64,000 nt of DNA from positions 25,688-89,687 of the forward strand of contig JAUYCX010000119.1 in NCBI GenBank assembly GCA_030692045.1, read 5' to 3'. The translations under genes and the position numbers were made by a program. Below, in pieces: positions 11,719 through 49,200 of the stretch. Each line of letters starts with the position of its first letter. Position 1 is the first letter of the stretch. The stretch is from Candidatus Omnitrophota bacterium. GTDB lineage: Bacteria > Omnitrophota > Gorgyraeia > JAUYCX01. The notes under the pieces are model-generated. The model ran no database searches. It was not told where the DNA came from and worked only from the letters and a program-made list of their open reading frames with translations.

Positions 11719-11736
11719 GGGGGTGTAAATAAGACA

Positions 11737-12066: not shown

Positions 12067-12121
12067 AATCGCGCAAGGTTTGAAAACGATGCTAAAAGGG
12101 GTAAGTGTGGATAGGGTTCAT

Positions 12122-12493: not shown

Positions 12494-12497
12494 GTCA

Positions 12498-12830
12498 ATG
12501 AAAAATTTAAGGGCGCAAAGCTTAACAGAATATGTAATTGTTTTGGGGTTGGTGGTAGTTGCGCTTACCACTATGCAGGTTTATATGCGTCGGGGTATTC
12601 AAGCAGTAGTTAAAGTTTCTGCAGATGAATTAGGCTTCCAGCAAAATAGCGAGGATGTGCTTGACCCGGCTAAGCAGGGCTTTTTAAGGAGCTTTCACTC
12701 TCAAGTTAATTCCCAAAGCCAGCGTCGAATGGTGGGTGTCCCAGGAGTTCTAAATAAAGATATTGATGAAAGTAGCACTTTTTCCTTAAATGGTATATAT
12801 TTTTTGGGTAATGAGGAGAAAAGTTTGTAA
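12498..12830 (+). CDS. Flp/TadE-like pilin (start re-assigned from 12435)
   Basis: MKNLRAQSLTEYVIVLGLVVVALTTMQVYMRRGIQA. Confidence 0.78.
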   Translation: MKNLRAQSLTEYVIVLGLVVVALTTMQVYMRRGIQAVVKVSADELGFQQNSEDVLDPAKQGFLRSFHSQVNSQSQRRMVGVPGVLNKDIDESSTFSLNGIYFLGNEEKSL

Positions 12831-13151
12831 ATGGATAAACACGCGCAGATTAGTTTAGAGGCAATTATCTTGATTATCATTGTGGTAGCCGCGCTTCTTA
12901 CTATGGATATTTATTTAAAACGCGCTATACAAGGTAGATGGCGAGGGGCTTCTGATGAGATAGGCGAGCAATACGAATACGGACATACCAATAGCGATTT
13001 TACGTTTAGCGTAGTAAGTAATACCGAAACGTTAATTAGTACTGAAGAAACTCGTCAAGGGGAAGGCAATGTCGTGATTACTACCAACAGAGTTGACTTA
13101 ACTGATATGTCAGAAACCAAAACAGGCACAGAATATGTGGAAGGTTATTAA
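12831..13151 (+). CDS. Flp/TadE-like pilin
   Basis: HAQISLEAIILIIIVVAALLTMDIYLKRAIQGRWRGASDEIGEQY. Confidence 0.78.
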   Translation: MDKHAQISLEAIILIIIVVAALLTMDIYLKRAIQGRWRGASDEIGEQYEYGHTNSDFTFSVVSNTETLISTEETRQGEGNVVITTNRVDLTDMSETKTGTEYVEGY

Positions 13152-25200: not shown

Positions 25201-28200
25201 AGCCACCATAACTTATATGCCGGATGGCAGGATTAGCGGCAACATTCACAATTTTGATGTTATCACCCAGCAACGTGTTACGCAGGCAAAAGCGCTTATG
25301 GCTTCAGGCAAGCGTATTATTGATGAGAGAATGTTTCAAGATGCCTTTCCAGGATTGGATGCGAGTAAGATTACTCAAGAAGGCGACAAACTATTTTATA
25401 AAGCGGGAGACAAACCCAGAGAAATTGGCTCTATTAAGCAGGGCAAAGACGGCGCAACTTATATTCAGCCTTTTGGCATAGGAACCAGAGGCTATGATAT
25501 GACAGGCATAATTCCAGAGGAGACTGCGCAAGGCTTAGAAAATCTCGGTAAAGATTTTAATAGAAAATTAGTTGAGAATGCCGAGGTGATTGTTCCGGTT
25601 GTCGCATTAAATGGCCAACTAATTGAGAATAGTGATATTGTAACCCTTCACTCAGGATTAGCCTTATTTACTAACCCGCAAGAAGCAGTGCCTTATCTAA
25701 CTCCTGAAGGAGATATGCCGCTTAGACTATCAGATTGTTTCTACCAGAAAGCTCGCAAGGGTTATGAGGAGCTCAGGCCTGCTTTAAGAACAATGCAAGA
25801 CCTCTTTGCTGACATAGGACTTTTAGGGGAGCAAAAGAAAGATACTTCTTCTAAATACGCAACACTAAGAATAGCAATAAATAACTACCTTACCCAAGAC
25901 GCAGATTTTAATAGCCTCTCAAAATCTGGTTTGGTGGATATCACGGGAAATGTTTATACCAGCCGTCTCCGGTCAGAAGGTATTGCACCTTTAAGAACAG
26001 CTCCCCTTACTACGGGTGTAATGCGGTTTAATCCAAATACGGATACAGTGTATTTGGGAGTGCAGGCGCAATTAGGAGGCAAGGCACAAGGAAGTCTTTA
26101 TTTGTCCCCTGAATTTACCAACGTAGACCCTGGTTTAATGTTAGGATTACAGACCTATAAAAATTATGACCAGGGCTTGATGCGCAGTATTGCTCCGCAA
26201 GAACAAAAGCCCCAGGACCAATCTGCCCCAGAAAAGTCTAATCAGCGCGGTTTTGATATGGACATCTCTCCTTTTAGGTCAGCCACACACTTAACCGGCT
26301 TGACTTCACAGCAAGGCGCTGTTTTAGCTAACCAAGGCACCTTGGAATACCTGCATTTTGGCCAGAAACTGCATAAGAATTTTGGTCAGGGCACAATTAT
26401 TGAGGGCGAGATTGAAACCCCTCATGTCGTGGTTCCAGGCGCTGAGACATCTGCCGATGGTACGTTTAAGGTTACAGAGATTCACACTGCTGATAAATTT
26501 AAAGGTATGATGATGTTTGGCGGTAGAGAGCGCGGTGGCATTGCCACAATCGGTGAAGGGTTCACTAAGACAAACTCTGAGCCATCAATCTCACTCATTG
26601 CCAGAGGATACGCTGGAGGTCTGGTTATTGCCAAGGTAGTGGCAGAACTAAAAGACTTAGGTCAGTATAATGTCAATACTACCTTAGGCAACAAGATTAG
26701 TGGCAATGAAAGAATATTTTTCTTAAAAGACACAAAACAGGCAAAAGGAAGAATGGCAGCTGGCATTGCCGGCGAAGGACAGAGATTAGAAACCGGAACA
26801 GTTGGATTAGGCTTTGAACCCATCAAGGACTCAAAAGGCAAGGACTTAAAAGGCGCCTACGGCTTGAAAGGCGAAGGCACAGGTGTGGCTCTCTGGGATT
26901 TTAGTAGTTTATTACCCCTTGAGGGCTCAGGGACTCAGGGAGAAAAAATGAATCGCAATGTGCGTGGCTTCATTGCAGAAACCGCAGCCAAGAAAGGTAA
27001 AGTATTTTATGATGAAGTAGTCCCCAAATATATCCCCTATTATGGCTTATTTTCCAATGGCCCAATAAAAGGATTAGACTTTGGTCCTAATCTTTCTGTC
27101 TATGCACCAGACAAGAATCTTAGTCAGTGGGACATTGGACTAATTCAGCGCACATTAAATATCAATGAACAGGGTATCTCTGAAATTGGAAATATAAACG
27201 TTAGTTCTGCCACACTAAGCAATTTAAGAAATAATACACCTCTACACACCCGAGAGGTTATTAGCCAAGAGGAATGGGACAAAAAAGAATTACAAGAGCC
27301 AGGATTAAAAGAGACGCTGCGCGACAACAATAATTTCCGTTTTGGCAGAAACCTACTAATTAATGACATTGGTCCTGGCACAAAGATGCTGGTTGTGCCA
27401 AAAGGAAGAGGTGCGCCCAATGAGTTCCACATTGATTTCTTTAAAGAGGTAAATGATGGCCAAATAATTCCCGGCAGAAAATTCTGGGTAGAAAATAAAG
27501 GTCAAGGCATTCTTTCCTTTGATATCTTAAAAGAAGATTTAGATAATTTCAAGATGGCAGGCCTGAAAGCAGATTCTAAGAAGCCAGATTACTTACTCTA
27601 TAATGATTGGCATGCTTATATGTCAAAGCCGGCAATGACACGTTACATTGGCTCAGGTCTTTATTACGGTGTGAAGGCTTATCTTAATGAACATCCCAAA
27701 CAAAAAGTAGAAGATGTTATGAAAGATGTCTTAACCGACACCTTTAAAAATTTACGCTTAAATGGACACACTTTAGATAGTCAAACTTTAGATAACTTAA
27801 CTTCTATTGTTTCCCAGTTGTTTGATTCAAAGGTCAGCCAGAAAAATAGAGATACACTTTTAGCTTCATTAGGCGAAGAAATTGCTAAGATTTCAGGATT
27901 AGATAAAAACCCGTTTTTGTTAGCACAGGTATATGAAAAACTGCAGCCAGTGATGGATGCAGAGGGAAAAGTTGACCATTATCGCATTACCGCAGGTGTT
28001 GAAGGTTACAAAGAGCTTACTGCTACTTATGATGTGCGATATGAAGATTTACCTACTGTAAAAAAAGATGGAACACCTTTAGGCGGAAGCACACCTTATA
28101 TCCTTGCCGGCCAGCGTTTTGCTGCACCATCTGTTCAAGGAGTGATGTCAGGTTTTAAAAGCGATAAGCCAGATGAGCAACTTACGCCATCGTCAGACCC

Positions 28201-31200
28201 AACCGAGCCATTAGAACGAGTAAATGCCACAGCCGAATTAGACTACCTGGGAACAAATTCTAAGGAAGGCATAATAATTGATACTCCCTGGATGTCTCAA
28301 GTGAGTGTAGGTGCAGGTCCTGATGGTAAACCAGTTATTCGTCTGTTTGGTTTACAGGATGATACCTTTAACCTTGAACATTATGAAATTGGAAAAGGCG
28401 GTGCCTATTATGGCTGGGGCGGCGGGATTTTAAGAGACTGGTCTGGAGGTTCAAAAATAGATTTTGTCAAACAAAAGGGCGAAGATGGTAAGGAACAATA
28501 TGTTCCGATAATTAGGGATGGTGGTATTAAGAATGGCGGTCAGTTTAGGCCAGTATTTGCCAATGAGCTGGGTATTGTGGATAGGAAGATAGATGTGGAT
28601 AGTGAGACAGAAGCAAATGGCACTTTAGCCCTGCTTTATGGAAACAAGGGTTGGTGGAAAGCTGATGTCAAAGAAGAAAATGGCAAAGAATATAATACCT
28701 TTACTCCTTTAGGTCTTCTTTTATTTACAACCAGTCCTGATTTAATCCAGTCTGGTCATATTGCCAGTGTTTCTGACTTATATGGAGTCAAAGATTATTT
28801 AGCCGGTAGTTCAAATCAGTTTAATTTTGAGAAGGGTAGTGCGCGCTGGAATGAAAAAGCAGGTATTACATTATCCTTTACAAATCCTAATTTTGGCGAT
28901 GGCAAACGTTTTGATGTTTTGCTTCACGGCACCAAGAACAAGCCATCCCCAGAAGCAAGTTCAGATAGTCAACCTCAAGTAGTTAATGATTTAGTGGGAA
29001 CTTATAATAAGGATAATAAAGGTCCTGCACAAGTTGATTATCGCAATGTTGAGGTAGCTAAAACAGAATTTCCCGACGCAGAAGAGGGTTCAATTAAAAA
29101 CTTTGCCACAGCAGAGATTGCCAAAGAAGGTCTGGCTCTACAGCCATTCCAAACAGTTGCTACTTCTGCCTGGGGTTTGCCAGGGGTTGCCAGCTTAGCC
29201 ACTGTTTCAGCTGGTCTAAATACTTTATCTCTGACACATAATCTAAAAATTCAGAAGGGTAGTGTTTATATCTCGCCTCAGGGAGAACAGGTTTTTGGAA
29301 AAGATACATTTGCATATCAAACACTAAAGCTAACTGAAATCCCTAAGGATATTCAGAAAAAAGTAAATTATTTAGCTGAGCATACAGGCTTAGGAAAGCC
29401 TAAAAACTTAGAAGGCGAGGTTACCCTGTATGGCCAATTTGTAATAACTGATAAGGGTAGTAGTTTTGTTCCATTTTCTTCTGACTTCAATATTTCTTCT
29501 CTGGGGAAAAATGGAGAAAGGCATAAATTTTATATTCGAAAAGATTCTGAAGGCCGCATACGTTCTTTTGATATTCCTTCTATTACCGATGAAATGCCTG
29601 AGGCAAAAAAGAGATTAGAAAGCCTGCAAATGACAGCCTGGAGTGGGCGCGCTACAAAAGACTTGCTTAGCGGGATTTTAAACTCACCTACAATTCTTGC
29701 AGCCTCAGTTTTGATTCCTCCTCTTTCTGGGGCAAGAACTTTAGGAATAGCCCGTTCAGGAGTTTCAGCAGCATCAAAATCATCAATATGGCTGCGACTA
29801 ACCTCAAGAATATGGACAAAGGTGTTAGGAAAACCTTGGGGTGCAGTGGGCTTTGCCAACGCAGGAAGAGCTGCTAAGGCATTGGGCATTGCTAAGGTAA
29901 TAGGTAGAGTTGCAGGTTATACAGCAATTACTACTGGGACAAGTGCAGTAGGAGCCTATCACTGGGATAAACATTTATTAAAAGATGCACATTTAGAGAA
30001 AAATATAGAAGCTCAGCTAAGAGAAAAAGGTAAGCAAAATATTTATAACCCCTCTGCGGTAAAATCCTTCTTTAAAGGTACATTTTTAACTCCTGGCAGG
30101 AATTTATTACGTACCCCCTTCATAGCCAACTGGTTGGGCATTCATAGCCCTAACATTGATGTCTTATCTTCATTTGAGGCATTTAATTTTAATGATTGGG
30201 CTTATCAGCAAGGTTTATTAGGTTTGCCCTTATCTTACTCTGCAGGTGCTTTACGAAGCTGGCTAAGCGTAGCCACATTTTCTTCACAACTTAGCTTTTT
30301 ATTAAACCCCTTAGGAACAGGAAAAGAATATTATGCCATGGCAAAAGGTTTAGGCTCTGGAGCGTTACTCGGAGAAGGAGCAAGATTAGTTGACATCGCA
30401 TATTTATTAGGCCAGTATTCAGGTGCTAGAACAGGGTTTAAAGGCATAGGCAATAGCTTAGAAAGGGCTCGCTCCACATATCAACTAACAGGCAGATTGT
30501 CTGGTTTAATGACACGAACAGAGCAGCTCTTTAAGACCACTCCCAAATTTATGTTTGTAAATACAGCCTTTGGCTTTATGCTTCCACTTTTAAAAGGTGG
30601 TGAAGGTATTTCTCCTGAAACCCTATCCAAGAGTCTAAAGGCAGTGGCTTATCAGATGGATACCATCATCAAGTCTTCTTTTGGTATGGCTTTAACCTCT
30701 GAACTTTTAGGCTTTGCCATAGGCAAAGCAACAAATAGAATTCCACAACTTAATAATTGGTCAACTTGGCAGACAATTGGGTCTGGTGTTGGCTTGACAG
30801 GTGTAGGTTATGGTTTATTACCTTTGTTGGGAAGAAAACTTGATGGCAGGCTTGGTAATGTTGTTTCTGATGCAGGCATATTTATTGGTGGCATAGGTCT
30901 TAGCTTAATCACAAAAGGCATAACCAAAGGTATTGTTGATAGTCGCATTGGTAGAGGATTAATAGCTTTTGAAGATAGGGTAGATAACTGGGGGCGTTTA
31001 GCAAAATATCCTACAAAGTTAGGTTTGGGTTTGGTCAAATTAGGTGGTAAATCCTTCAAACTTACTGCTAATGCCTTTTCCACAGGCAGCATATGGTATG
31101 GTGCTAAAGTAGCAGGAGTGGATTATCTGATAAGTTATGCCCAATATTGGTTACAAAAAGGCACTCCCCAAGAAATAGCCAAGCCTTCTTATCTGGATAA

Positions 31201-34200
31201 GTCCGCACCTCACCTTAGAGAAAAATTAGGTTATATTTTTATGACGGGTCTGTTTATTAATGCCTTTTCCAAGTTAGGTAAGGTTGCCACTAAGACATTT
31301 CGTCGCATACGCTCAGAAGAATACAAAGGTATGAGGTCTGTCTTGAGGGAGAGTGGGGATAAGTATTATAAGCAAAATCTAAAGGGTAGCTATGATTTGG
31401 GAACCAATATTGCCCGCACGATTTCAGAAAATAAAACTTTCCAAAAAGTAATGGGCACTGCATTTGCCGGTTCCAAAGGTTTAGGTTATGATTTAGTTTT
31501 AAGGGGAACCTTTGGAAATCTATTTAGGGTAATTGCGACCTTAGGTCCTTCATTAGAATTGTTTTCTTATCTTTCCGGCAAAGCCCTGGTTTCCAAAGAC
31601 CATAACACTGGTTTGGAAAATGCCTTGTGGGAAGCATCTTTTGCCGCTTTTGGAAATGAGGATGCATTAAAGAAATATAAAGCAGAAGGATTAATTGGCG
31701 AAGATGGAGCTTGGAGAGAGGCTAAAAAGATACTTGGTAGTTTTGGTAAGTTTGGTTGGGATTCGCAAAAAGAATTTCTCAATAACATCTACAATAACTT
31801 TGGAGCTTTAGTTAATCCTTTGACTAGCAAAGATGGAAGAATAGGTGTGCTTGCCAATTTATTTAAGGTCGGATATTTGTCTGTTGTATTTGGAACACAC
31901 GATGGCATAAAACGTGATGCAAATGGTAGAATAATTTATGATGAAACAACCGGTAAACCAATTGTAGATGAGAACTTAAAAGGATTAGCTAAGGTAACCT
32001 CAGTTAAAGAAGCCTGGAGCAAGCTTTCTTATGTGTTTTGGAATAGAAAGTTTTGGGAGATGCCCATTAGGGCTTGGAATACCCTTGACCGCCAAAGCCT
32101 TTTATTCTCCTTTACTTTGGCTGTGCTTCAGCCATTTGCTGAGCCAGTTTTGAGTAACATTAAACGCGGGAATTTTGGTAAAGGCTTTGAAGCTACCGGC
32201 GAAGGTGTTAAAGCTAGCTTTGGTTTTGAAGGATTGGGAAAATGGTCTCAGAAAAGCAATGTTTCATCTGCCTCTGGAAGATTAGGGCAAGGTGTAAAGG
32301 GATGGATATCTGGAAACGCCCGTATGACTGTGCAAGGAACAATTGAAGAGGTAAATGAACAGTTTATCCAGATAGCAATTGCACCACTTGCAGGCGGGAT
32401 TAGTCCTTTATTAGAAATGGCTCATTTCTCTAAAGAAAGAGCTATGGCTATCCAGCAATTCATTGAAGAGGATGCTGAAGAGTTGGGCTCGCCCAATGGT
32501 AGCGATGCAGGAGCAAAATATAACGCTGGCCGCAATTTCTGGGCAAAGTGGTCATCTGGCAGGCCAGGTGGAAATGAGGCTGTTCTTAGATTATTAAATT
32601 CTCCCCACAGAGACATTGAAGGCTTTATCTACAGCAGTTACTCTCAGAAAACCCCAGCACGTCAGGCAGTAGAGGACTTACAGGATTATGGTTTATTAGG
32701 TTCGCATGGCTTTACGCTTTTGGGAAAACAGATAATTAGAGCCCAGGCAGGCCAGAGTTTGCAAGCAGTTGATGTGGCTGGGATAACCCAAAAAGATATA
32801 GAAGATTATGTAGCCTCCAGAACACCTGTAGCTGGAGAGCAGAAGGACATTAGGAAATTCTTTACCTCCAATGGCTTTGTGGATGTGAGTGGAAAGTCAA
32901 GGAACCTTACCCCAGAAGGACAACAAACAGTTGTTGCTTTTGCAGATTTGGCATCTCAAGATGGCAACCCCATTATGAGATTTGTGGATTTACTTTATGG
33001 TGCATCTCAAGGAAAAGGTTTGAATAAAACTGTTGTGCGTGTTAATGGCTCAACATTTGCAGTTGGACAGCTTTTGGAAGTTATGCATAAGCCGGAAAAA
33101 GATAAAGCAGGAAATCTCACAGGCAGGGCAATTGTGAGTTATGTTAACCTAAGACATCCCAGTTTAATGGGCGATGTAGTGATTGCCAGCGCTGGAAGTG
33201 CCAGCAGGCAAACAGCGCAGGATTACATTGACTCAGTCAAACAGCAATCAGTGGGTTTGAAACCAGTAGGTTGGATTGGCAAGGAAGGTAAAAAAGGCGC
33301 AATTCAAATTATGGCAATTGATGGTTTAAGAGCACAAACTGACGTAGAAGATTTTGCCTTGCCTGGCAAAAATATTATTTATGTTGATTTAGATTCCTGG
33401 GAGGTAGAGGAATCTATAGAAACTAACTCTGCCATACAGCATGGCCTTAAAGAATTAGCTCAATGGAATAGAACAGGCAGAACATTAGTCCAAAAAGGAA
33501 AGATTGCCTCGCCAATACAATTATCAGACTGGGCAAAACAACATCCCTTTGATGCTCCCAGATTTCAAGGCTTCGCTCATCAAAATGCACAGGCAATTGC
33601 GCCTTTGGCGCAATTGCCCTTAGTAGTTACTGGCATTCGCAGAGAATTTGGTAAACACGATGAAATTATTCTTTCCAGTTTAACTGACACCGCATTAGTA
33701 GATAGATTAATTGAGTTAGTGGTAGATACAACGAGCTCTTCTCACGATAAAAAATCCGGCTATGAAAAAGCCAGGGCATTAATGCAAACTCCAGAATTTC
33801 AAGGTTTATCTGACTATGCAAAACTCCAACGTATTCAAGAAGTAGCCGGAAAATTAGCTGAAAGCAAAGATACGCAAAAGCAAGCCGCTCCTTTCCAAGA
33901 AGCATTTGGTTTGGATTACTTTACAATGATAAGAGCGCAAGGTGTATTTGAAACTGTAAAGGGATTAGATGAAGGTTTAGTTAACAGAGTTAGTTTTGCT
34001 GATGCCTTAAATATTAGCTTTGCCTCTGGCGCTGGTTTAAGCAGAGGACAGGTCTTAAGAAATACAATCTCTGGTTTGATAACTCAAAAAAGCCCAATTT
34101 ATCAGGCAATGGAATTGCTGAAGTCTCTGCCTTTGACCTATCAGGGAATTAAATCTATTGCCAGAGAAACCGGCTTAAAACCTGAACAAGTGGCGCAACT

Positions 34201-37200
34201 TTATGATGTAGGAATAAGCAGCCAGAAATTTGAGGCAATGGCTAAGGTTTATAAAGTAGCCAAAAAAATAGACCCCTCATTGAGATTAGTTATGCGTATG
34301 CCAGTTGAAAGCTATTCTTCAGGCAATTTGCTTAGAGAAATTGTCTCTAAATTAGACCGCAGCGCTTTAGAAAAACAAGGCAGGGCTGATGTATTTGATA
34401 CCTTAGATAGAATTGCCACTGCCTCCCAACAAAGAGCGCCAACTCTTGCAGATGCGCAAACAGTTGCCACTGCAATGAGAATTTCTCCTGCCGAGGTTAT
34501 TCCTCTATTTACTTCTGCCCTTCCCCTTGAAATATTGAATAGACGTTACACCAACCTACAAAATTTAGGCATAGATTTATCCCGCACCAGCATAACTGTG
34601 GATGATTTAGTTAGAGGCAGGATAGATTTTGCTAAGAATTCACAAGCGCCTGAATTATCTGCTGCCTGGAATGATTTGCAAAAGACTCCCCCTACTCCTG
34701 AAACAATCTTAAGAATTGCTAATAGGCACAGCATTAGCGAAGAAAAAGTGCTTTTGCTGCATTTTGGCTTAGATTTTGATTGGAGCAATCCTGATATCCA
34801 GAGAAATTATCAAAAAATAGCACAAATAAATAGTGCTTTGGCTAAACGAGAAAGCACAGGTGAAGAATTAAGATATCAAGATGGCTCTGCGTTTAGAGTC
34901 AACATTTCCTCAATTCATACAGGAAGGTTTGGCTGGCAAACAAACGATGTTCCTTTTGAGTTTAATCTTGATGATATGCTTACTTTGTCAAATGGCAGAG
35001 TTATCGTCGGACAAGATGGAAATCGTCAAGAAATTCCGGTTGTGTGGGGTTTTAATGGTAAAACAAAGGGAGAAAGTCCGCTTAAGGATTTGCTCAGACC
35101 AAATACTATTCCTTTCCACAGAGTTGTTGATTTACAGAAGCATGTCAACAATTTAGGCATTTCGCCAAACGGAATTGGGAAAATTCAGATTGGCATTGGC
35201 TCACGGCAAGAAGCAAGTTTTGCCTTTGGATTAAAGGGCGAAGATGGCGCAAGAATACTTTATCTTCATCCTTCTATTTTAAGAAATCCAGCTCTTACAA
35301 AACTTGCCATTGATTTTGGTTTTAATGGTCATAATGGTAGAGCCCAGAATATTAAACACACAGCCAAGGCATTATTGAAGTTTAGTCATACTGCTGATAG
35401 CAAAGATTTAGGGATAAGTAGTATTGATAAATTAAGACAGGGTTTAGAAATAGATTTATCCGCAGGAAGAAAGCATCCTTCCAACACAACCATAAAACAA
35501 GCTGTGAGTGTGGCTGTGGCAATGTTGCCAGGAAAGAGCGCAACTGGTTCAGTAAGTAGAATTGCTGATGAGTTGTATACAGAATTAAGTAGAGCTGATA
35601 GCCTCATAAAACTCAAACCTACAGAAACTGCTCCTGCACCTTCGCCTGCTGCAGCAACTCCTCTGGAGCAAAGGGTAAAAGAAATTATTCAATTAGCCGC
35701 AAAGCTTGACCAGGCGCCTTCTGATACGCCTGCAGGTTTAGAAGAATCGCAGCAAGTCTGGAGAGAGTTTGAGCAATTAGCCCGAGAGAATATGCAGTTA
35801 ACCCAACAGGCATTGGCTTTAGCCGAGGAGCATGTGGGAAATAGGGGGGGGAAAATTTCCTTAGATGTCTTTGGATTGGAATTGGTGAATATGGAGAAAA
35901 TGCCAGCACCAGTCCCTGAAGTGCCAGAAGCACCAACTCCTGCACCAGCTCCGACGCCAGCACCACAACCAGCGCCCAGAATTGACCCTATTTTAGCCGC
36001 AACTCCGGATGGCGAGTATCTTCCGATGGGCGGTTTCTGGAGGCTTTGGGCTGGCAGCGGATATTCACCTGCACACGAACAGGGCTGGAAACTGCATGTA
36101 GCATTTACTGAACAGGATGCGGCTGATGTTCTTTCTGCAGTCTTGCCAATTCTGCAAAGAAATAATATTCCTCATAAAGTTGTAAATGACGTAGAAAAAT
36201 TGCGAGAAATAAATAACCCGACTTCAAGCGGCGAAACCCAGATAGGCAAGAATATTGCAATATATGCTGTAGAGGTTAACGACCCCTCGGATAGAGAGGC
36301 TGTGGAACAGGCCAGGCAAAAAGCACGTGGATTAGCATTAGAGATAGATCAGGCGTTAAGAGGCAGGGGATTTAGAGCCCCTGAAGGCCTTGTCTGGGAT
36401 GCACAGGGCCAAAGAGGAGATAAACTTATCTCCGGTGGAGAAAGCGGATTAGTCGGGTATAGATTCGGTTCTTTCAATGATTATAAAGTAATAGACAGGT
36501 TTGGAAATGTCCAGCCAGACGAGCGCGATAGGTATAAATTAGCGCATGGCCTTACAAATGTAACCTTGACTCCTCCTAAGGCACCACAAGCACTAGCTCC
36601 AAAAATTCCAGAAGCACCCACAACACCAGCTCCTGCGCCAATGCCTGCCCTGAGCAGCGTCGAAGGGCCAGCGCCAGCCGATGAATCCTCATCGGTGCGG
36701 TCGGTAGAACTTGATGGGTCTGAGGTGCTAAGGAAGGTTGTTGATAGAGCGCTAAGGCAGGAAGACTCACCTCCAACAGCTTCAATGCCAGCGCCAGCGC
36801 CTCAAGCGCCAGAAGCGCCACAAACCGCCAAACCACAAAAACCCTCAGGCACTAATGTGGAATTTCTTGGCTTACAAACCTTGTATGAATGGTTAGCTTA
36901 TTATACAAAATTAGCTATTTGGAATATAAAGCAGTCTCGTACAGCCAAATCAGAAGTTTCTCCAGCTGCTGCGAAAAAGCCTTCCCCTGCTCCACGTATT
37001 ATAGGCAAAGCTCCTGGCCAGCGGTCCCCTGACACCGCGTCGCCGGGTATTCCCCCCGTCATTACCTCACCAGCTGGCTGGAATTGGAACAACTTTATAC
37101 AAACGGCAAATAAAGATTTTCTCAAAGAAGGCCAGCGTGTTTTTGTAGAACGCTCCGAATTACCAGAACCCGCTACTGGCGAAGGCATTATTGTCCGGGA

Positions 37201-40200
37201 TGGATTATCTGGCGAATTGCGCGTCAAACGAATTTCCAATAATGAATTGTTACCACTTGAAGCTATTAAGGCAATGGATGGGGCCAGAGCCTCTCGACGA
37301 ATTCGAGCCGATGGCAAAGAGGTGGCAGTTCTTTATCGTGTCATTAGAGGAGATGAAGAAACTCTTAAAACATTACAGCATCAAGGCCTATTTTCTCCCG
37401 GTTTAGTGGCCTTTAATGGCGACAGACAGAGACTCTATGAACAATTGAATGAACGTTTTATAGGAGGATTAAGAGACCTTGACATTTCCGATCTTCTGGA
37501 TCTTAGATGGGACTCTGCTATTATAGGAGACCAGCATAATACTATCATAACCCCGCTTATGTCGTTTACAGCAGATCCATATCGTACCAGGTCTTTCGGA
37601 ACATATAATCCAGGAGATAAACCCATTCAACGTTTCATTGTTGAGTTAGAGGTTCCCGTTGATCGAATCATTGAGCTAAAAGAGGAGAAAAGAAGTCGCT
37701 CTCTCACACATATCCGCAACGCGATTAGAAAACTTTCTTCCAACCATCAGTATTTATTCGTCCGTGCGCCTGACCAATACGAGAGTGAATATACCTCTTT
37801 GACGGAGCATATCCCAGCAGAATATATCACAGGAATATATGTGGATACATTACCGCCATCCGTCGCCGCTCAGGCAATAAAGGCAGAAGAACTTGCCCGG
37901 CCTCCCACAACGCCACCAGCCGCGCAATCTCAACCAACACCGCAAGCTGTGTCACAAGATGATCTGGAAAAGTTTATTGAGAATATGTCGCCAGAGCAGG
38001 TTAAAGCGGCTTTCTCTGATATTATTCCAGCTCCTAAACTTCGAGAAGCAATAGCCAAGCCTTCTCAAAGAATGGATATTTTCTTAAGGCATCTTACACA
38101 TAATCAGATTGCCGTCAAAGCAATGGGTGGCAGAGCCCCTGGCGAAATTTCTGCAGTATTGCCAGTTTCAGAGGTGCAGAGCATTCTTTCTCAAAAAGGC
38201 TCTGCACATTTAAGCAATGAAGAAGCAAAAACTTTGCTTGAGGCATTTGTGAGTGCTGATAGCCATCAATTAAAGGCAAGAATTTTAAGAAGTTTAATCA
38301 GAGCTAACTCAATCATCTCATTTGAAAAATTGCCAGCAGAAAATAGGCACGCCTTACGAATGGAATTCGTTAGGACTTTTAAACAAACCTCAGATGATGA
38401 TTTAAGAGGGATGGTCATAGACTATTTTGTCAGAACACATACTGGTCTTCTAAAACAACAGTTAAGAGCGCAACAACAGTTGGAGCGCTTAAGCGATGAA
38501 GAACTATTGCAGTCTGCAAAGATAGCCTTACACAAATCTTTATTGAGTTTAGATGAATCTACTGTTGAATTTAGCTTAATGCATTGGCTTAATCGAGTTA
38601 GAAATGAATTACGCGCCGAAAGAGATAATAGATTACTTCGCACAAATAAGAGTCGAGAAAATTCAGGATTGGGAAAATTGAGAATTGAGTCTCTCGATGA
38701 CCTAATGCATGTTGACGATGAACGAATTTTAGCTGATGTTATTGCAGATACAAAAGCTATCCCACCAGATGAGCAAGTTAAGATAGCCTCTGAACAGGCA
38801 CGCCTTAGAGCTTTAGTTGCTGCAATACCCAATGCCCAAGAACGCTTGGTCTTAGGTTTTCGTTTAGGTATTTATGGAAGACTGACACTTAGAGCAATGG
38901 CAGAGATTGCCGGTGTCTCATACGAACGCATCAGGCAGATAGAAAAAAGCGCAGAACAAAGGCTAAGGAAATTAAAACTTGCTGATAATGTCTCTAAGGA
39001 GCCCATTGACGCTGGGGAGATTTCCCATCCCATTCAGGCGCTTAAAGATGCTTTTGCACCAGCAAGAGAAATAGCTAATAATAACCGAAAAATTCAAGAG
39101 AATTTTAGCCAAGAATTTGAAACGCGTTTAACTAAAGCACGATGGTATGAGCAAAGATTTAGAGAAGAGCCAACAATACCTACTCTTCATAAATTAACTG
39201 GAATTTCTATCTCGACCCTGCGTGACCATAAACCTGAAGTTGAACAGGTTATTAAAAGATTATTTGAATCTCCCGAAGGTGCAGAAGTTGTAGTAAACAA
39301 GAGAAAACAAGTTTTACCAGATATTCGCTTACTAAGCTTATTAAAAGATGACAAACAACGATTAGTATGGGGGCTACATTTTGGTTATTATACTAAAGAC
39401 AGAAAGACTATGCCGCTAAGGACTATTGCAAAAATAGCCGGAGTCTCAGAAGCAAGAATAAGAGAGATAGATAAAAAGGCAGGAGAAAAGTTGGCAAGAC
39501 TAAACAGGCTATATGAGATAGCTCCAGAGCTTTACTCAGGTATGGCCCCAGAGGTTTTCTTAGATGTAGAGCCTATCGAGGTCGTTAGAGAAGTTTTTGC
39601 CCCTGAAAGAGAACGTGCTTTTCCCAACATATTAAGAACTCGTTTAACTGAGGCAATAACTGAGGCAATACGGAATCAAACCATATCTTCATCAGTTGTT
39701 CTTACAATACCTACTCTCAATAAATTAACGGGAATTCCTATAAATACACTACGTAACCATCCCGAAGTTGTTAAGGAAGTATTAGACAAATTTGGTTTGC
39801 AGGTAAGAGTAAGAACGTATAAAAAAGAATCACCCAAAGTTTATGACTTAGCCGCAGGTCTGGCTTTGCCGGTTTTAATCCCTGGGGCAGGTATTTTTAT
39901 CTTGGCTGGACTATCAGCTGGAGGATTAGGATACTTGGCTTATAAAGCAGTTAAGAGCGCTCAGGCAAAAAAGGCAGAAAGACTTGCCCGGGCGCCCACA
40001 ACGCCACCAGTCGCGCAATCTCAACCAACACCGCAAGCGCCGGCTGTTCAAGCGCCCGCGCCGCCAAAAGATTTTAGCGGTAGTGATTTTGGACAATATA
40101 CTTCTGACATAACTGATCGCGGTCGTTTAAAGATTATAGATGATTACATTCTAAAGCAATTATCCCAAAATCCATTAGGAAACAAGCCTTTAATTATAGA

Positions 40201-43200
40201 TGTTGGCATTGGCGCCAGGGCTTTAGGAGATGCTTCCGGAGTTCCTTCGCCTACTTTCTTTGAATTAGCTGAACGGTTAAGAGAAAGATTTGGTGCCGAC
40301 GGCTTTACGCTCGTGGGTATTGATAATAATGATTCTATTGTGCAGGAAGCCAATAAGCATATCGCAAAAATGAGGCAGGATGATTCTAATTTTCCTACAA
40401 ATATCCAAGTTATCCACGGAAGTTTCTCCACCGCTGCCCAGCAGTTTAAGGGCAAGGCTGATTTAATTCGCAGTATGGCAGTACTCCATTACTATGATGC
40501 TAATACGCGCAATCAATTCCGTTCCTATCTATCCGAAGCGCTTAAGGAAGGAGGTAAATTTATAGAGGGAGGTTTTAATTACTCTATAGTTCACGAAAAA
40601 GATAAGTCGAGGTTGACACCAAAAACATTAAATGTAAATTTAGAGGACCATAGGATTTCTGGTTATGTTGTTGGGATTATCCCTGATGCCCCTCAATCTT
40701 TAATGCCTTTATTAGAAGAAATTTCTAGAGCAAGAAGTAGCTTTAGTTCTTCACTCCCTGTAACCTCACCGATGTCCAATCGTGAAGTCGCCATAAAAGT
40801 AGCGCCTGACGTAGCTCAAAGTTTAACTTATGACAGGTATATGGTTAGTAATCCTTTACCTGGTTTCCTTTCTTTTAATTTGGATGATACAGGCGAACTG
40901 CAGCAATCAAGCCGCCTAGATGCAAAAGCCTATTTTATTCATACAGAATTACAAAACGAATTTAAACCTGCTGATTTTAGAGCTTATACGCAGAATTTAC
41001 TCACAGCAGCACCTTTAAAAGAGCGAATCAATGAAATGGTAAGAGCTAGAGCAGATCAATTCTATCCAAATGAAGTTACTTTCGAACTTCTTTTCTCCAG
41101 AGTTGATAAGTTTATTAGAGATAGTGCAGCTGAAGCAATAGCGCCACCGCCTATTGCACCGCTGGCTGCCCCTGTGCAAACTGCCTCTCCTTCTCCACAA
41201 ACCGCCAAACCCCAAAAACCCACAGGCACAAATGTGGAAATGCTCGGTTTGCAAACCTTGTATGAATGGTTAGCCTATTATACAAAATTAGCTATTAAGA
41301 GCGCTCAGGCAAAAAAGGCAGAAAAACTTGCTCGGGCGCCCACAACTGAAGCAAAAGAAAACACGCCCCCATTCTTCGATCCAAATGTAAATTATACCCG
41401 GCCGCTCCCAAATATTAATGAAGTAATATCATCTTTCATGAGTGACCTTATATTTAATCAATCTCTGGAATTAAAGCTTAAATTCTTAGATTTATTATTC
41501 CCAAGAGATAGAAAAGAAATGGCTAAATTTTTTACACGAGCCCTATTAGTAAGCGGAGAAACACATGGCGGATTCGCTTCTGCGCAATTTAACAATCGAG
41601 GCGTTACCTTAGCCGAGTCAGGAGACTTTGAATCAGCTGTCCGCGATTTCAAACGCGCTATCAGCGCTGACCCTACCAATACTCTGGCTTATCGTAATTT
41701 AGCAAAGTTATTGCTTAGACAAGGAAAGGCCTTTGAGGCATCACGGGCTTTTGTTAAATCATTCCCTCAGCCCCCTGAGTCACGTAGAGTAAAAGCAGAA
41801 AAAATTGTTTATCTAAACGGCAGAGACTTGGCTTTGCTCTTAGGTTTAGCAGGATTATTTGCTTCATCGCCAGCTAAAGCTCAGACAGGTAGCGTGGGTG
41901 ATAATATCGTGGAGGGCATTGACCAAGTAATTTCTCAATGGCTGCCAAATCATGCAGATTTTGTGTTATGGGCTGGAGCAACCTCAATAGTTCTTAGCTC
42001 AATTGCCATATTTAGTTTTGTGGCTTGGCGGTTTAGAAAATCCGCTGGCCTTAAGTTTTATCTAACCACACCTGCAGGAAAAATTGATTGGAAAGCAACC
42101 ACCAGCGCAATTATCATTGTTCTGGGCAGTATCCCACTTGCGGGCTTAAGTATTGGCGCTGTCAAAACAGCACTTGAGGCTCAAACATTTTCTCCAGAGG
42201 CAAAGGCTTCTGCTGCAGAAATATTGGGTCTAATAGGAGCGGTTTTGCCTTTAATAACTGTTGGCTGGATTGCCATTGATAAAATCTGGAATAAGACCTT
42301 AAATATGATTCGAGGAGATTCTCAACCTTCTAAGCGGCCAAAATCCGGTTGGGGAAAGAATTTACTCATTCTTGCAGGTTTGGCAGGTCTTTTTGGCTCA
42401 AGCCAGCCGCCAGCAAAAGCAGGCACAACACCTGATACTTCTCCAGCGCCGAGGGCTAAAACAGAAGAGATAATTTACCCGACTCAAAATATTGATATTG
42501 CAAAGGCTCTTACCGACTTCTCTTCAATGCTGATTAGTTTAAATGATTCAGGCGCGCTTACACCTGAGCAAATGGCATTATTAGAGGAATATAATAATAC
42601 TACTATTAATTCAGTTCCTGAAGTAAGAATTTTGCTTGAGCAGATTAATTCTCGCTTAAGTTCAGCTTCTGCAAAGGTAGATACAGTTTTTGTGAATTTG
42701 GATAAAACAACCGTAAGGGACCTTAAACTTGGTATGAAGGTGGCATTTACAACCAGGTTAAACGGTAAGCAGATTGGAGATCCTCAGACAGGAACAATTA
42801 GAGAAATCAAAAGAGGCCCACCTATTGGAGAATTCCGGAATCGAAGCGTAGAAATTACTGTTGAAACAGATCCTTATGAAAAGGAATTTAACTTTGATGG
42901 TTTAAAATTTAAAGCAAAAATGCCTTCATTTGAATTACCCTTCACTGCTCCTCCAAACCAAACCCTAAGACAAGCTGGTTTTGACAAAGTCTATGAAATT
43001 ATAACTCCGGTCCAGCCAGCACCGGTTGATTCAACTCTACCTGTCTTGCCTGATTCTCTTGACAGCAGAATTAAGAAATTAAATATAGAAGAATTCAATC
43101 TGCTTTTGCAGGTTGCTCCTTCACCAGTAAAAGAATATTTATTTAGGGTGCAAGAAGCACAGATGAAAGGAATGATTGGTTTGGTTAATTGGTTGGAATT

Positions 43201-46200
43201 ATCAGCCAGCAGTAATGGCTTAACTTTACCTTCTTTTGAGCAAGCCGAAGAAAAGAGGCAAGTTATAATGTTAGCACTTAGGCACCAAGAACTTGAGCCC
43301 ATACGAACAGAAACTTTAAATAGAGCCTTAGAATACATTAGAGATAACTTTACTGAATTTTACAGATTTGTAATGGCTAATTTAGATGCGTTAGAGTTAG
43401 ATCATAATGGTAAGAATGATTTCTATTATCGTATAGGTGAAAGAGGCAAGGTGTATTATCCTGAGGCAACTTTAGGTCAAAGGCCTGCAGTTATCGCAGC
43501 TAGATTATTCCATGAAGTTATACACAGCTATTTCGATAGAATATATGGGGAAAATTCAGCAATTGGGCCTTGGGGTGAATATAGCGCAGACCTCTTACAG
43601 GATATGGTTGCGAAGTATGAAAGCAGGCTCCAAGGTGAAAAGGATTATTTCTCGGTTAAGAGATTAGAGCCTGAATCAAGGTTTCATTGGGGACCCTCGT
43701 TTGATGCCTGGATGACTGCGAATGCAGATAGTTTATCTAAAGTCTGGCCAGAGTCTGTGCGTGTCAGGTTAGCTCAGATACATTCTGAAAGAGCGTTATT
43801 AGAACAGATGTCAAAGTTAGGTACAGATACCCAAAAACAGCGTCCGCCTGAGCCGCTAAAGCCAATTGAACAAAAGAAAGCTAAACAGCAATCGCCAACT
43901 GATATTCCGAGTGGCTCACAGAAGGGTCAATCTAAGCCATCAGATGAGAGTGCTTTGCCGGCGCCTGAGCCTTTTGGCTTGCCAGTTGCACCCATAAATC
44001 TATTACTTATTATTCCTCTATTCTTAAGCAGCACAGGCAAAGGTCTAAAGACAGTGTTTGGCATACGAGAAGCATTTGCTCAATCAGCGCCTTCAGAAAA
44101 TAATCTGGCTGAAATTAATCATTCTAAGCAAGCTCAAAATAACATTGGAATTGGAATTGGACCTCGAGGTCCCACCATAAGAATGCAAGCCGGCATTCTC
44201 GCAATGCCGCGCCTTGCAACAACAGAAGCGCGAGAAAATATCACAGATTACACAGATTCTCTCTGTGAACAATCTGGTAACACAGATTACACAGATGTTG
44301 TAGGTAATCAAGGCCAAGTAAGATTGCCAGTGCTTTTGGCAATAGTGGGTTTAGGCTTAGCTGTAAATGCCATAGGCTTAATACCGGCAGTAATAATTGC
44401 CATAGCAGTATTAGGATTTATCTTAATTAAGGCCAGAGTTACCGAAGGTGCCACAGGTTCTGAAACTACATCTAACAGAACTGGTGCATCTACAAGTGCA
44501 ACTGGTTCTAAGGGTGCATCAACAGGTGCAACATCTAAAGCAGAAACCACAACTGCTAATACTAATGGCTCTGGTTCTCAAAAGGGTCAGACAGTAAATA
44601 AACCTTCATTCAGCGAAAGATTAAGAGTAATTAAAGCTCAAGCAATTCGCAGAATAAAGGATTTTGTTGTTTATCGTGCTAGAGCTCCAACGGCGCTTGC
44701 TCATAGACTTGTTTCTTCTGCAATTGTCATTCCTGAACACAAAGACCTCGCAATTCCTTCCTTAAATAGATTCAAAGGCAATAATCCTACAATTCTTGGC
44801 CGGCTTTTAGGCTTTATCTTCAATGATTTAGCGCACATTATAAACGGAGAATTGAATTGGGAGCGTTGTATTTTGAAAGCTGGTAAAGCCGGCGGCAAGT
44901 TAGCTGTGGTTATTTATCCTACCTATGACCACGATGGAAGCTTTAATCCCGGTGAGTTAGAAAGGTTGGTCAAAGAGTTAGCAACCAAAGGTTACCGTGT
45001 AATAGGCGCGCGTGTCAGTTCGGTAAATGAGCTTATTAACGCGGTCTTGAATTTTACACAACAAGAAGCTGCTTCATTGTTATTCATAGGCGGACACGGA
45101 AGTCAATATTCTATTCAATTAGGAGCAGAGCTTCCTCTTGTTGAAGATAGCAATAAGTTGACGATATATAATCTACACCTTCTTTCTTTAGCGAGAAAAA
45201 GCTTAGCTAATAATGGCGTTATTGTTCTTACGTCTTGCAAAACTGGAAAAGGAGGGGTTGGTGGGTTCAACATAGCCAATGAGGTTGCAAAGGTATTCTC
45301 ACAGGCAAAGCATATTTTTGCGCCTGAAGAATCACCGTATGGTGCTGTTACTTGCGAATTGATATTTGATGACAATAGTGATGTTATGGGAGTTAAGTAT
45401 GATTACCTTGGCTCTGTTAAAGATTATTATGATGCAATAACCAATAGAAACTCAGAACCCGATTTAATTCAAAGAAGAGAAAGAATTCACAGCCTACTCC
45501 CCTATATTAGAGAAATAATTGCTCCAGCGGTGATTATTATGGTTATAGCTTTATTCTTTGGCGTTTCGCCTGTTTTGGCAGGTCCCGTAGTTGCCGGCGC
45601 AACAGTTGTAGTTGGTAAAGGTGTTTTAATAGTAGCATTGAAAATGGTTTTAGCAGTTGCAGTGGGTCTGGCTATTGCCAGAATGTTTAGCAAAGGCGCA
45701 CATTCCGTGGCAGTGCGTTCAATAAAAGGTCTGGCTGGTCGTTTTGGCACCCCCTCCGCCAAAACCGACCGCCAGGCCTCTTTTAGAAGGCTACCTTCAC
45801 TAAAATCTATAACTAATATAGTTCTATTCTTAATGGCATTATTCTTGGTGCTTCCTGCAGTGCAGACAGTTCTGCATGAATTAGGACATGCCATTGTCTA
45901 CATGCTCATCGGCTTTTCACCACATCTCTATATGGGCAATGACCTTAAATCTTTGATTTCTTTAGGAAATTATTTTCAATTTAATATTCAGGAGCCTTTT
46001 GAGTGGCTGGGCAAATTGCTGGATACACGCGGAGCTGTAACTGCGCCAATTGATATAAATGCTTCCCAAGAAGCTGTATTGCAAATAATGGAAAAAATGA
46101 AGCATCAGCCCAAATTCGTTTTGTTCTTACTTAATATCTCAGGAAGTTTGCTTAGGGCATTGGTTATCTCACCCATTCTTTATTTCTCATTTAAATTGGC

Positions 46201-49200
46201 ATTCCCGCTTAGGTTAGATGAATATGAAAGTTTTAGAAATGACTTAACTGAAACGGCCTTAGAAAAATTAAGAAGATGGGTTATGTTTGTTCCGTTGATA
46301 ATAGGTTCAACAGTGATACTCATTTCAGAGGGAGCATATGTGTTTGTGGTAGGAGATAAAAATTCTGATTGGGTGCAGGCTGCACAAATTTCAGGCCTGC
46401 CACGTGCATTGATAGGCTTAATTATCTTACTGCCGCTTGTTACACTTGTTGCTTACGACATTATCAAATTTGTTAGAGAGGAAATTAAACAGAATAAAAT
46501 TATTGCTCAGTTTGAAAAAGGCGAAGAAAAGGGAGGTGCAAAATGGTTAAGATTAATTTACAGGAACTGGAATTTGACCACTTGGTTGAATTCAGCAAAG
46601 ACCGCACAATCTTTGCGGCAGCTCGCCAGAACGGTAGCGGCCACATTAGGCTCTTTCTTGTATTCCAAGACAATGGCAATGTCTACACCAGAAATGGCAC
46701 AGCAGACAGCTGGGAACAGCTCTTTGGCCAAGATGCTGAAATTGTTAGTGGCAAAATTACTCTCGCTCTTAACAACCATATCCCGGTTTACAAAGTCAAC
46801 GGCTCGCACGCTTAAAGAGAGTAAGCGAGCCGTTGACTCTTCTCGCGTTATTGAACTTACAATTGTAGCTCTATCGCCATTCCTTGTAGGGTTTAGCCAA
46901 GGAACAATCATTGCCGTTGTAATTCCTCTTGTGGCTACTTTCGCACTTTTACTCTATCTTAAACATCGTGCTGGTATGTTACCTTCCACAATCGCCCTTA
47001 TCTTAGGTGTTGGTATTGGGGTATCATTATGGCCGTTATTGTCTATCGTTATTAAATCACAACAGCCGATTCTTTCTCAGATAGCACAATTAGGATTAGC
47101 TTTATCCATTTTGGGTACTATCTTAAATGGATGGAGATTAAGACAATTAAGCAACCTCTCAATTTCTAAACTTATCGCGCCTTATAGTAATGATGAAGAC
47201 CAAACAACACTGCGCCAGCAATTCAAGTCTAACAACCTCTTCCAATATTATGCCAATGCTGTGATAATTGCAGCAGTTTCTATGGTCAGTAGCGTGATGC
47301 TTTTGTTAGTTAATTTACATAACCTCAGTGCGCAGTCATTAACTGCGCAAGGTTTAATCTTGGCCAAGATTGGTTTTGCGATGACAGTTGTGTCTTTGGT
47401 TATGGGCAATATTATTTTCCATAGAGCCGCAATAAGACATCAACAAGGATTAGTCACTACCGGCCTCTATTCTAAGGTAAGACATCCGATTTATTTAGCT
47501 TGGCTGGCGGGAATTTTAGGTATAGTGATGATGTTTCCCAATATTTACTCAGGTTTGTTCTTTGTAACCTTCCTAATTACAGCCAAGACAGAAGCCGTTA
47601 AAGAAAACATTGGTTTGTGGCTTGAGTATGGTCAAGAATATGCTCAATACACCCATAAAGTTCCTGCCTTAGAGCTGAGAGTTTTGAGGTTAGTGAAGAG
47701 AATACTGCCGTTTGTGATTATTGCAAGTGTTATTTTTGCCAACCCTGCCTTGTCAGCGCCAATGATAGATGTATCCCATTCCAACATCTGGGATATCTTA
47801 GGACCGATTAGCATATTGGTTTTCTTGGTGACTATGGCAAATGACCCGCCAAATGATGAGCGAAAGCCACGACGAGAATTTGGAACGAAGGATGTGCAGG
47901 ATCGTTTTCCAGACCTTGTTTCTGCTCGAACAATCGTCTTTAAGTGGAGGGCCCTTTACAAACTTGATTATGATGAAATCTGCTCTATTCTTGAGTTCAT
48001 TCAAGGTAACTTAGGGTGGTGGGAGCAGTTGGCGCACTCCGAGCCAATGAGTGGCACGCCATATAAACAAATCAAAGGTTTTCCAGCTATGGCCAGGGCT
48101 TATGAGAAAGTGGACCGAAGCTTTCAGATATTGCGAGGGCTCATCGAAGTCGTGCAGGAGGCCGTAAAGGAAGTTGAGGAACAGGTGGGATTCAAGAGCC
48201 TACCTCAGTCTTGGCGGTTTACTATGTTAGCGCTAGCTGCGAAAACATTGGATGAAAAACACAGTCTGGACGCTGTTCGGGATCATCTGACTGATGAGTA
48301 TATTAGGCGATTCGAGGAACGCAGTGAGAGCAGAGGTCAAAGGCTATGGAGCCATCCCATTGTGACCTTGGTTGCTGCCTTAATTACTCTCGCCTTGATG
48401 TACCCAACATCAGGTGCGGGCGTTGCAACAATAAGCGCAAATGGTTTGCCAGCGTTTATTACTAAAGTTGTGGTTATTTTAGGTATTCTAATGCCTTTTG
48501 GCCTCATTTTAAATAATAGGCCAGAAGAAAATAGATGGATAAGCGAGATAAAGCAAAGAATTGCTGAAATTGCCCAGAGACATCCTCGACAAGTAAAAGG
48601 TTTGGTAGCTTTTGTGGTTATATTCTTTTTGGAAAAATATTTGAGGCAAGGTATCGCAGAAAAAGTCGCAGCTGAAATCCAGGGTAGTCATAGACTAAGG
48701 GATTTAGAGACATTTCAACAGATACAGGGAGAATTCATAGAATATTTACAATCACATTCAGCAAGTCTATTGACCGCAATGGGTATTTCAATGTTTATAG
48801 ATGAAATTCAGAGAGACTTAATGGCTCTTAGAATATTAGCCGATAGCATAATTAATGAGGCATTGGCAAGAGATGTATCACTGCAGGGTCAATTAAGAGT
48901 TTTATCTGAGTTAACATTAAGGCATCTACAATCACCTTCCAATCCAAGAATACAACGAATAAATAGAAGCGCTTGGCGTATTGAAGTCGAAATAGCCAAG
49001 ACGCTGGGAATTTCTGAATGGTTATTTAGAGAAGGATGGGGGAGGGATTATGGCATTGAGCCAAGAAATGAGCCTCCTGCTGGACCTCAAGCTGGCGCAG
49101 TGCGGCACATAGTTGTGTTTCCTTTGATTGCTGTAGTGGGACTGGCAGGATTGTTGTTGACTGCAAGCGCAACTGTTGTTGGCACAGTGTTGCTTAGCGT

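Follow-up and report, generated by a model that had tools for sequence, protein, structure and literature searches.

Genes tens of thousands of codons long, found in these predatory or host-dependent bacteria, raise the question of how such frames are translated, how their products enter the membrane and are cut up, and how they came to be assembled in evolution. A locus raising it was analyzed in a Candidatus Omnitrophota bacterium (genome G000), in a 64,000-nt stretch of contig JAUYCX010000119.1 (contig C51) that we refer to as the window and in which all coordinates are given. The window carries a giant open reading frame (ORF) on the + strand (19244..64000) that reaches 18,015 amino acids (aa) at the end of the contig, where it is still open, and the repeats considered here are confined to 5.5 kb of this gene. 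An original prediction had interpreted this segment as effector cassettes joined by shared DNA linkers, A, B and C, each with near-identical copies, acting as shuffling junctions. The analysis indicates that the linkers are, very probably, a protein-level cassette of about 50 residues that has been reshuffled by ordinary recombination, providing exact, short and testable sites at which to approach the question above. The fuller proposal, in which cassettes composed of a helix, a basic segment and a pause motif pace membrane insertion, and have spread through local duplication and ordinary recombination, is the most likely of the explanations considered, although we regard it as evenly balanced between right and wrong.

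Junction repeats as a protein-coding cassette

The genome is a fragmented metagenome bin of 2.19 Mb (95.7% complete, 7.5% contamination). The linker repeats reported in the original prediction are real and in frame, and together with a Pro/Ala repeat that it had overlooked (tile P) they present the following organization.

Tile P copy 1: 35899..35935, + strand; Pro/Ala repeat preceding the lyase-like module, 84% identical to copy 2
Tile P copy 2: 36784..36820, + strand; Pro/Ala repeat abutting C1
C1: 36818..36919, + strand; 5' half of the cassette, a moderately hydrophobic helix with KLAI at its end
A1: 37867..37947, + strand; basic helix, R-P-P-T (37898-37909) and Pro/Gln tail, with no hydrophobic helix before it
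Hydrophobic segment: 39848..39943 (aa 6869-6900), + strand; 32 residues with basic residues on both sides, a candidate membrane hairpin and the 5' half of the B2+A2 junction
B2+A2: 39951..40038, + strand; basic helix, R-A-P-T (39989-40000) and Pro/Gln tail
C2+B3: 41195..41346, + strand; chimeric cassette with a C 5' half joined at KLAI to a B 3' half, R-A-P-T at 41333-41344

The two copies of C (36818-36919 and 41195-41296) are 91% identical over 102 nt. Near-identical repeats are hence present, but A and B constitute a single family, with a 45-nt core in three copies (37867-37947, 39951-40038 and 41295-41346). Identity within this family ranges from 89% over 45 nt (A1/B3) through 93% over 81 nt (A1/A2) to 96% over 52 nt (A2/B3). 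Searched with BLAST against their own 2.19-Mb genome, the C and A/B repeats matched their respective copies with E-values from 1e-10 to 1e-36, and no copy was found elsewhere in the genome, where the remaining matches span at most 31 nt (E ≥ 0.012). The repeats do not fold into hairpins (z -1.4 to +0.2), and a hairpin mobile-element origin was rejected on this basis. A similarity of 27 DNA columns, in different frames, was also noted between the tail of C1 (36909-36935) and the head of B2 (39925-39951), right at the C/B junction; 23 of 2,971 random pairs match it, making it a weak lead.

The divergence between C1 and C2 is biased towards silent sites, with six silent changes over 22.5 sites against three replacements over 79.5 sites (Fisher P 0.004). 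Three pairs of related cassettes from G027, a genome of another family, show the same tendency (pS 0.28-0.49 and pN 0.04-0.13 at silent and replacement sites, respectively). At the sequence level, these values support purifying selection on C and suggest that the linkers act as protein signals. Since a pure DNA handle would not generate a bias at silent sites, C does not appear to be one.

The G027 homologue of C (44%, E 1.7e-5) was detected in one of 400 other genomes of the phylum and again forms part of a giant C39-like ORF. No credible genome besides G027 emerged when a profile was searched against 400 genomes of the class, a sample overlapping that of the phylum; matches in G156, G141 and G527 (E 0.004-0.007) were dropped because they lie outside long ORFs. 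G027 encodes four related cassettes, the 5' and 3' halves of which swap at the same KLAI core. Two of them encompass a hydrophobic helix and a basic helix ending in R-G-P, one consists only of that 5' half, and the fourth combines a C-type 5' half with the same 3' half and ends in H-G-P, so that three of the four end in R-G-P or H-G-P. These cassettes separate GT4 glycosyltransferases (between two other copies), an M48 peptidase (upstream of the C homologue) and a lipoprotein-signal-like segment. The search of the genome and of related giant genes proposed with the original prediction hence places the cassette between different domains, and its claim that the linkers have recombined is borne out by mosaic halves both here and in G027, with three breakpoints in two genomes falling at the KLAI core. 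The sequence following C1 (W-N-I-K-Q) resembles the G027 continuation (W-K-V-R-Q), which points to C1 as the older form and to C2+B3 as a derived chimera. A composite junction of the same mosaic design as C+B was noted in the long frame of contig C76 of the same genome, where a hydrophobic junction (aa 2070-2116) joins the 5' part of a copy at ~1361 to the 3' part of a copy at ~878.

RAPP-type motifs and a predicted ribosome pause

The A/B core ends in R-A-P-T in B2 and B3, and in R-P-P-T in A1. In the accessible text of PMC12992588, RAPP and RGPP act as cores of ribosome arrest and are subject to strong avoidance in bacterial proteomes, and a survey of 52,895 genomes finds the RAPP-type motif family excluded from proteomes and concentrated in small proteins. 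The accessible text of PMC10987492 assigns R, Q and H at the first position to the RQH arrest family and places RAPT, RGPS and HGPP in natural upstream ORFs, while that of PMC7897499 shows ApcA arresting at the wild-type level with a Thr in the A-site.

The genome contains three further long open frames of 5,012, 5,502 and 14,198 aa, with no link to contig C51 seen; the 5,502- and 14,198-aa frames share an overlap of 70 nt. The four long frames total 42,734 aa, against 566,674 aa in the 1,699 other ORFs. R[AG]PP occurs 11 times in the long frames for 0.70 expected (maximum of 5 in 300 local shuffles) and once in the other ORFs for 4.2 expected. The comparison set of other giant genes comprised G027 and 21 genes chosen for long frames from the 55 other genomes that matched at the N-terminus; contig ends truncate many of them, and a single family supplies five. 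Across these 22 giants R[AG]PP occurs 18 times for 5.2 expected, spread over 12 genes. A motif family excluded from proteomes is thus enriched about 15-fold inside the giant proteins of this genome. The broader R[AG]P[PT] is found 17 times in the four long frames for 1.5 expected (14 after collapsing copies), and RAPT five times for 0.43 expected (four with B2 and B3 collapsed, P 0.001); K[AG]PP controls showed no enrichment. With homologous sites merged, H or Q takes the first position at 5/10 of the non-R x[AG]PP sites here, 10/46 in the other giants and 1/59 in the other ORFs, and the codons used for the motif vary.

In this genome, a hydrophobic segment precedes ten of the 16 [RHQ][AG]PP sites by 8-35 aa, compared to 6/58 other PP sites (P 5e-5), and does so at eight of the 16 with another hydropathy caller. 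From the start of the hydrophobic segment to the motif Pro there are 49 residues in B2 and 45 in G027 copy 1; the accessible text of bioRxiv 10.1101/2021.12.23.474019 reports that helices first meet the membrane ~45 residues from the ribosome catalytic centre. RAPP or RGPP sites in similar contexts were also observed in G427 (aa 17556), G156 (aa 8437), G407 (aa 10495) and contig C51 itself (~aa 17549), of which only G427 and G156 can be aligned (E 3e-4).

These features can be accommodated by a model in which the linkers are copies of one protein-coding junction cassette, with a basic helix placed between a membrane-type helix and an R-A-P-T-type motif. At this motif the ribosome would pause until the helix ahead of it has made contact with the membrane; the membrane-binding elements would be C and the hydrophobic segment, and pulling would release the pause. 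Copies of the cassette would have spread by local duplication and by homologous recombination between cassettes, with the exchange of whole modules as a by-product.

Several points weigh against this proposal. The linkers under study carry only the weaker RAPT and RPPT forms; C1 has no motif close behind it and A1 has no helix in front. C falls below the hydropathy threshold, its hydrophobic moment (0.28) is unremarkable (below the 75th percentile), and only two of the six R[AG]PT sites come after a hydrophobic segment (P 0.16). The motifs of the other 22 giants lack coupling to helices (2/31), and neither RGPP nor RAPT is enriched there. The 8-35 aa range and the motif set were picked after the data had been seen, and with P and T set aside the A-site preference does not differ significantly from the proteome (9/12 vs 28/60, P 0.11). 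The A1/A2 pair lacks the purifying signature, with one change over 21 silent sites (pS 0.05) and five over 57 replacement sites (pN 0.09), a substitution pattern that reads as for a recent copy. Published data, as far as the accessible texts extend, also include contrary cases: stable arrest by ApdA and ApdP requires a Pro in the A-site and is not supported by Thr (PMC7897499), and most of 23 RAPP-like Escherichia coli and Bacillus subtilis sequences gave no stall (PMC10987492). A stronger version of the model, in which every helix-basic-RAP cassette is a force-gated checkpoint that halts synthesis until its helix is pulled into the membrane, seems rather doubtful to us. Some checkpoints would there release the chain before synthesis resumes, as in viral 2A skipping, so that one frame would yield separate anchored enzymes without a protease, and the cassettes would double as in-frame crossover points for gaining toxin-like modules.

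The alternative that survives best, although we consider it unlikely, is that R[AG]P[PT] and the C helix would be recognized by a protease, either part of the giant protein itself or supplied from elsewhere, and a polyprotein would thereby be cut into separate membrane-anchored modules. The giant gene encodes an N-terminal Peptidase_C39 domain (aa 195-278, E 7e-10), together with S8 and weak M50- and A8-like domains (Pfam). C39 domains favour leaders with a double glycine, which are absent from C, A and B. In the G027:C15 giant frame (L006, L007), Q-G-G-G occurs four times for 0.23 expected, once just before the C-type cassette, and we take these to be possible double-glycine sites for its C39 domain. 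The motifs are situated at module borders, several right before signal-like segments (6/16 within 35 aa, P 0.03), and other giants present other junction motifs, such as SSP[AVI]. Cleavage has been proposed for such proteins in the accessible text of bioRxiv 10.1101/2023.11.21.568195, which states their cleavage points to be unknown and an obstacle to analysis. Against a protease site, the preference for R, then H and Q, at the first position and the absence of the motif from the remaining proteome match the ribosome-arrest family. The repeated protein tag of the original prediction is retained in one respect, as C is under purifying selection, and revised in another, as the tag resembles a ribosome-pause motif, which the prediction had not envisaged, more than a protease site.

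Modules between the linkers and their exchange

The domain order of the original prediction (lyase-like, ADP-ribosyltransferase fold, two sigma domains, hydrophobic segment, methyltransferase, tetratricopeptide repeat) was confirmed through Pfam matches and, for the ADP-ribosyltransferase (ART), a structure model.

Lyase-like module: 36023..36508, + strand; class III/IV lanthipeptide synthetase N-terminal type (RamC_N E 4e-13, LanL E 1e-15)
ART-fold module: 37289..37864, + strand; fold from predicted structure, R, S/T and E-x-E in their customary positions
Sigma-70-like module with region 4: 38420..38971, + strand; Sigma70_r4 E 1e-7
Second sigma region-4-like helix-turn-helix (HTH): 39353..39493, + strand; Sigma70_r4 E 6e-4, below cut-off
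Class I S-adenosylmethionine methyltransferase-like module: 40085..40684, + strand; E 2e-5, below the Pfam cut-off, 30% identical to a module of the G109 giant
Tetratricopeptide repeat (TPR) module: 41591..41791, + strand; E 2e-9

A related HTH-like stretch follows each region 4 (39173-39229 and 39704-39760, 81%). The ART module, located at ~aa 6,000-6,200 of 18,015, has no Pfam or NCBIfam match, and PDB sequence searches returned nothing below E 0.3. The top structural matches of its model (mean predicted local distance difference test score, pLDDT, 69.5) are ART folds, including TreX (Z 8.4, root-mean-square deviation 3.0, 108 aligned residues) and cholera toxin A1 (E 7e-4); matches in the Atlas (0.88) are leads only. 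R89 and E239 are invariant in all five alignment rows, and the central S-T-S motif is divergent. As modelled, the internal module is a putative ADP-ribosyltransferase of the R-S-E type, combining the fold with the Arg, Ser/Thr and E-x-E elements of the class. A small beta domain with weak Tudor-like matches (Z 4.6) precedes the fold (37100-37276) and is kept in homologues. The label of effector fits only the ART-fold and lyase-like modules.

Sequence comparisons show that modules do move between giant proteins over long times. Six of 380 other genomes have homologues of the lyase-like module, which lie without exception in ORFs of 1,403-11,275 aa and beside other neighbours. ART homologues occur in proteins of 5,769 and 2,684 aa that contain other repeated junction motifs; the two ART matches among the 380 genomes are the same genes as in the profile, or nearly identical ones, and so are not independent. 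The methyltransferase has a homologue in the G109 giant. The fixed domain order that would have contradicted the original prediction was hence not observed, the three modules having other neighbours in other long ORFs, and none of these homologues uses C, A or B. A conserved methyltransferase-TPR order in G109 was rejected, as the TPRs have no detectable relatedness (E 0.6). Encoding by Omnitrophota is indirectly indicated by a module homologue (P0004) named 'Candidatus Omnitrophota bacterium' and by a near-identical gene in G194, of the same phylum as G000. In the giant frame of G109:C1 (L042-L048), about 20 short hydrophobic junctions lying between modules end in FG[FM]V or W[AG]TV, representing another cassette type.

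Within the giant gene, C follows the lyase-like module and the methyltransferase, and the A/B core precedes three different domains. A single crossover cannot explain these halves, because each has been copied without its adjacent domain; a collapsed local duplication of a C...B block, or patchwork conversion, can in our inference give rise to them. A second and somewhat less likely alternative to the protein-level cassette holds that local tandem duplication and deletion in a fast-evolving gene left the repeats behind as near-neutral scars, and that only the general Pro-rich, helix-bearing character of the linkers matters. All copies lie inside 5.5 kb with none elsewhere, dispersed repeats of 40-400 nt at ≥80% identity occur in 12 of the 22 other giant genes (36 pairs), the C-C and B-B pairs are crossed as a collapsed C...B duplication predicts, and A1 and A2 differ mostly by replacements. 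Conservation of C across families, its silent-biased divergence and the strong enrichment of the motif over local shuffles speak against this reading.

A third explanation, to which we give slightly less credit again, is that the linkers are kept as DNA crossover handles for the in-frame insertion, deletion or exchange of whole modules. The in-frame, mosaic copies (89-96% identical), the breakpoints in the KLAI core, the presence of module homologues with other neighbours in other long ORFs, and the near identity of A1 and A2 at silent sites (1/21) count in its favour. The silent sites of C nevertheless drift, a single crossover would have brought each half with its neighbouring domain, contrary to the contexts of C and A/B, and module homologues elsewhere have other linkers. 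No orphan cassette with C, A or B was detected outside the stretch in the 2.19-Mb genome, no variant joint was seen at the cassettes among the contigs compared, and no recombinase is encoded on C51, the eight tyrosine and four serine recombinase matches of the genome all lying elsewhere. The genome (95.7% complete) has no RVT_1 match that would denote a reverse transcriptase. Nor was a relative close enough for comparison found: DNA searches identified none among 30 relatives, metagenome scans with C gave 141 and 492 pattern matches and none confirmed, and protein searches with the cassette alignment and the lyase-C-ART region found no relatives, which is weak evidence given their length limits. 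Two loci from a genome scan (L019 and L020, E 2e-5 to 3e-5) were rejected as chance matches; in L019, an ABC-permease-like protein, the similarity is limited to a Lys/Ala-rich tail. The dedicated recombination handles of the original prediction are hence not supported, the copies being local and devoid of hairpins, an adjacent recombinase or a reverse transcriptase, and whole-module swapping at the linkers is a possible outcome of ordinary recombination.

It is most improbable that the mosaic is an assembly artefact, with repeats joined chimerically and the frame kept open. The bin is fragmented and contaminated, but the copies fall below typical read length and are told apart by differences at 4-11% of sites, and G027 shows a mosaic of the same design. 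In addition, one 41.6-kb contig of separately assembled data (run X1) spans 35000-43000 without differences, though it is not independent because the window itself may derive from X1; in runs X2 and X3 the matches were limited to short Pro-rich stretches.

A simple hydropathy caller detected 71 hydrophobic segments on contig C51, and the genes upstream of the giant ORF appear, from their translations read by eye, to encode Tad/type IV pilus components. Among them, a row of small pilin-like ORFs (9498-14331) includes two preceded by the same 33-nt element (11032-11064 and 11689-11721, 97%). Inside the giant ORF, another repeat has copies at 24313-24494 and 25330-25511 and an older one near 22204. 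A strong hairpin element is also found in two copies (51210-51315 and 53037-53142; 86%, z -7.6 and -6.6), which lie partly in different reading frames and resemble insertions of a mobile hairpin element by which the frame was not closed. A 228-aa ORF (6677-7363), the translation of which we take to resemble a Y1/REP-associated tyrosine transposase, could be related to them.

Comparison with known systems

Shufflons, integrons and diversity-generating retroelements rely on short inverted or hairpin sites and a linked recombinase, or on a reverse transcriptase. The linkers are direct repeats without hairpins, the recombinases of the genome lie off C51 and there is no RVT_1 match, setting the locus apart from these systems.

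MARTX toxins are characterized by MARTX/RTX repeat regions and a C80 cysteine-protease domain, and polymorphic toxin systems by a C-terminal toxin with its immunity gene and by orphan cassettes sharing the junction. Membership in these groups, whose modularity the original prediction had invoked for comparison, is not supported, as their defining features were not found. Like MARTX toxins, the giant gene encodes a cysteine-peptidase domain and mutually unrelated enzyme modules, an ART fold among them, as a single chain, and the two would work alike only if the chain is cut. Unlike them, its peptidase is an N-terminal C39, the protein is rich in membrane segments and most modules are not toxins; no MARTX/RTX repeat or C80 domain was matched by Pfam in the four long frames (scans at E ≤ 0.05 and E ≤ 1e-5), the gene being incomplete. 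As in polymorphic toxins and the polyvalent proteins of phages and plasmids, for which the accessible text of PMC5512222 describes fused unrelated catalytic domains and proposes recombination at cassettes, unrelated catalytic domains are fused here. In this case, however, the ART is internal, there is no orphan linker cassette, and the gene stands beside pilus genes in a cellular genome.

The gene appears to fit the giant proteins described in Omnitrophota. Those of the Archaeovorin type (bioRxiv 10.1101/2023.11.21.568195) and of a multi-enzyme class (bioRxiv 10.64898/2026.06.07.730766) share with it, in the accessible parts of both sources, an N-terminal C39 domain, many hydrophobic segments, methyltransferase, peptidase, TPR and glycoside-hydrolase-like modules, and upstream pilus or secretion genes. 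The class is defined by at least 30,000 aa and a divergent SecA DEAD domain; the present frame reaches 18,015 aa with an open end, and Pfam matched SecA_DEAD in none of the four long frames. The multi-enzyme study, in its accessible text, scanned for tandem repeats only. Junction cassettes, dispersed in-frame repeats and arrest motifs are not described in the accessible texts on Omnitrophota giants, which mention neither arrest peptides nor ribosome stalling and the supplements of which could hold motif analyses, and the phylum is not mentioned in those of two RAPP-motif surveys (PMC12992588 and PMC10987492).

RAPP-type arrest peptides (SecM RAGP, ApcA RAPG, ApdA/ApdP RAPP and the RQH family; accessible texts of PMC7897499, PMC10987492 and PMC12992588) provide a closer analogy for the cassette itself. 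They share an R-[AG]-P core with H and Q variants, Pro or Thr in the next position, absence from the ordinary proteome and, at part of the sites, a location downstream of a hydrophobic segment. The upstream localization signal is present in B2 and at 10/16 [RHQ][AG]PP sites, but not in A1, and C is below the hydropathy threshold. Arrest peptides, as these texts present them, lie near the C-terminus of a small upstream ORF regulating the next gene, whereas the motifs here are deep inside an ORF of more than 18,000 codons; being internal, they do not make the cassette a member of this group. By analogy, the cassette may work like these peptides through a predicted pause, in which case arrest motifs would have a further role, that of checkpoints within very long membrane proteins.

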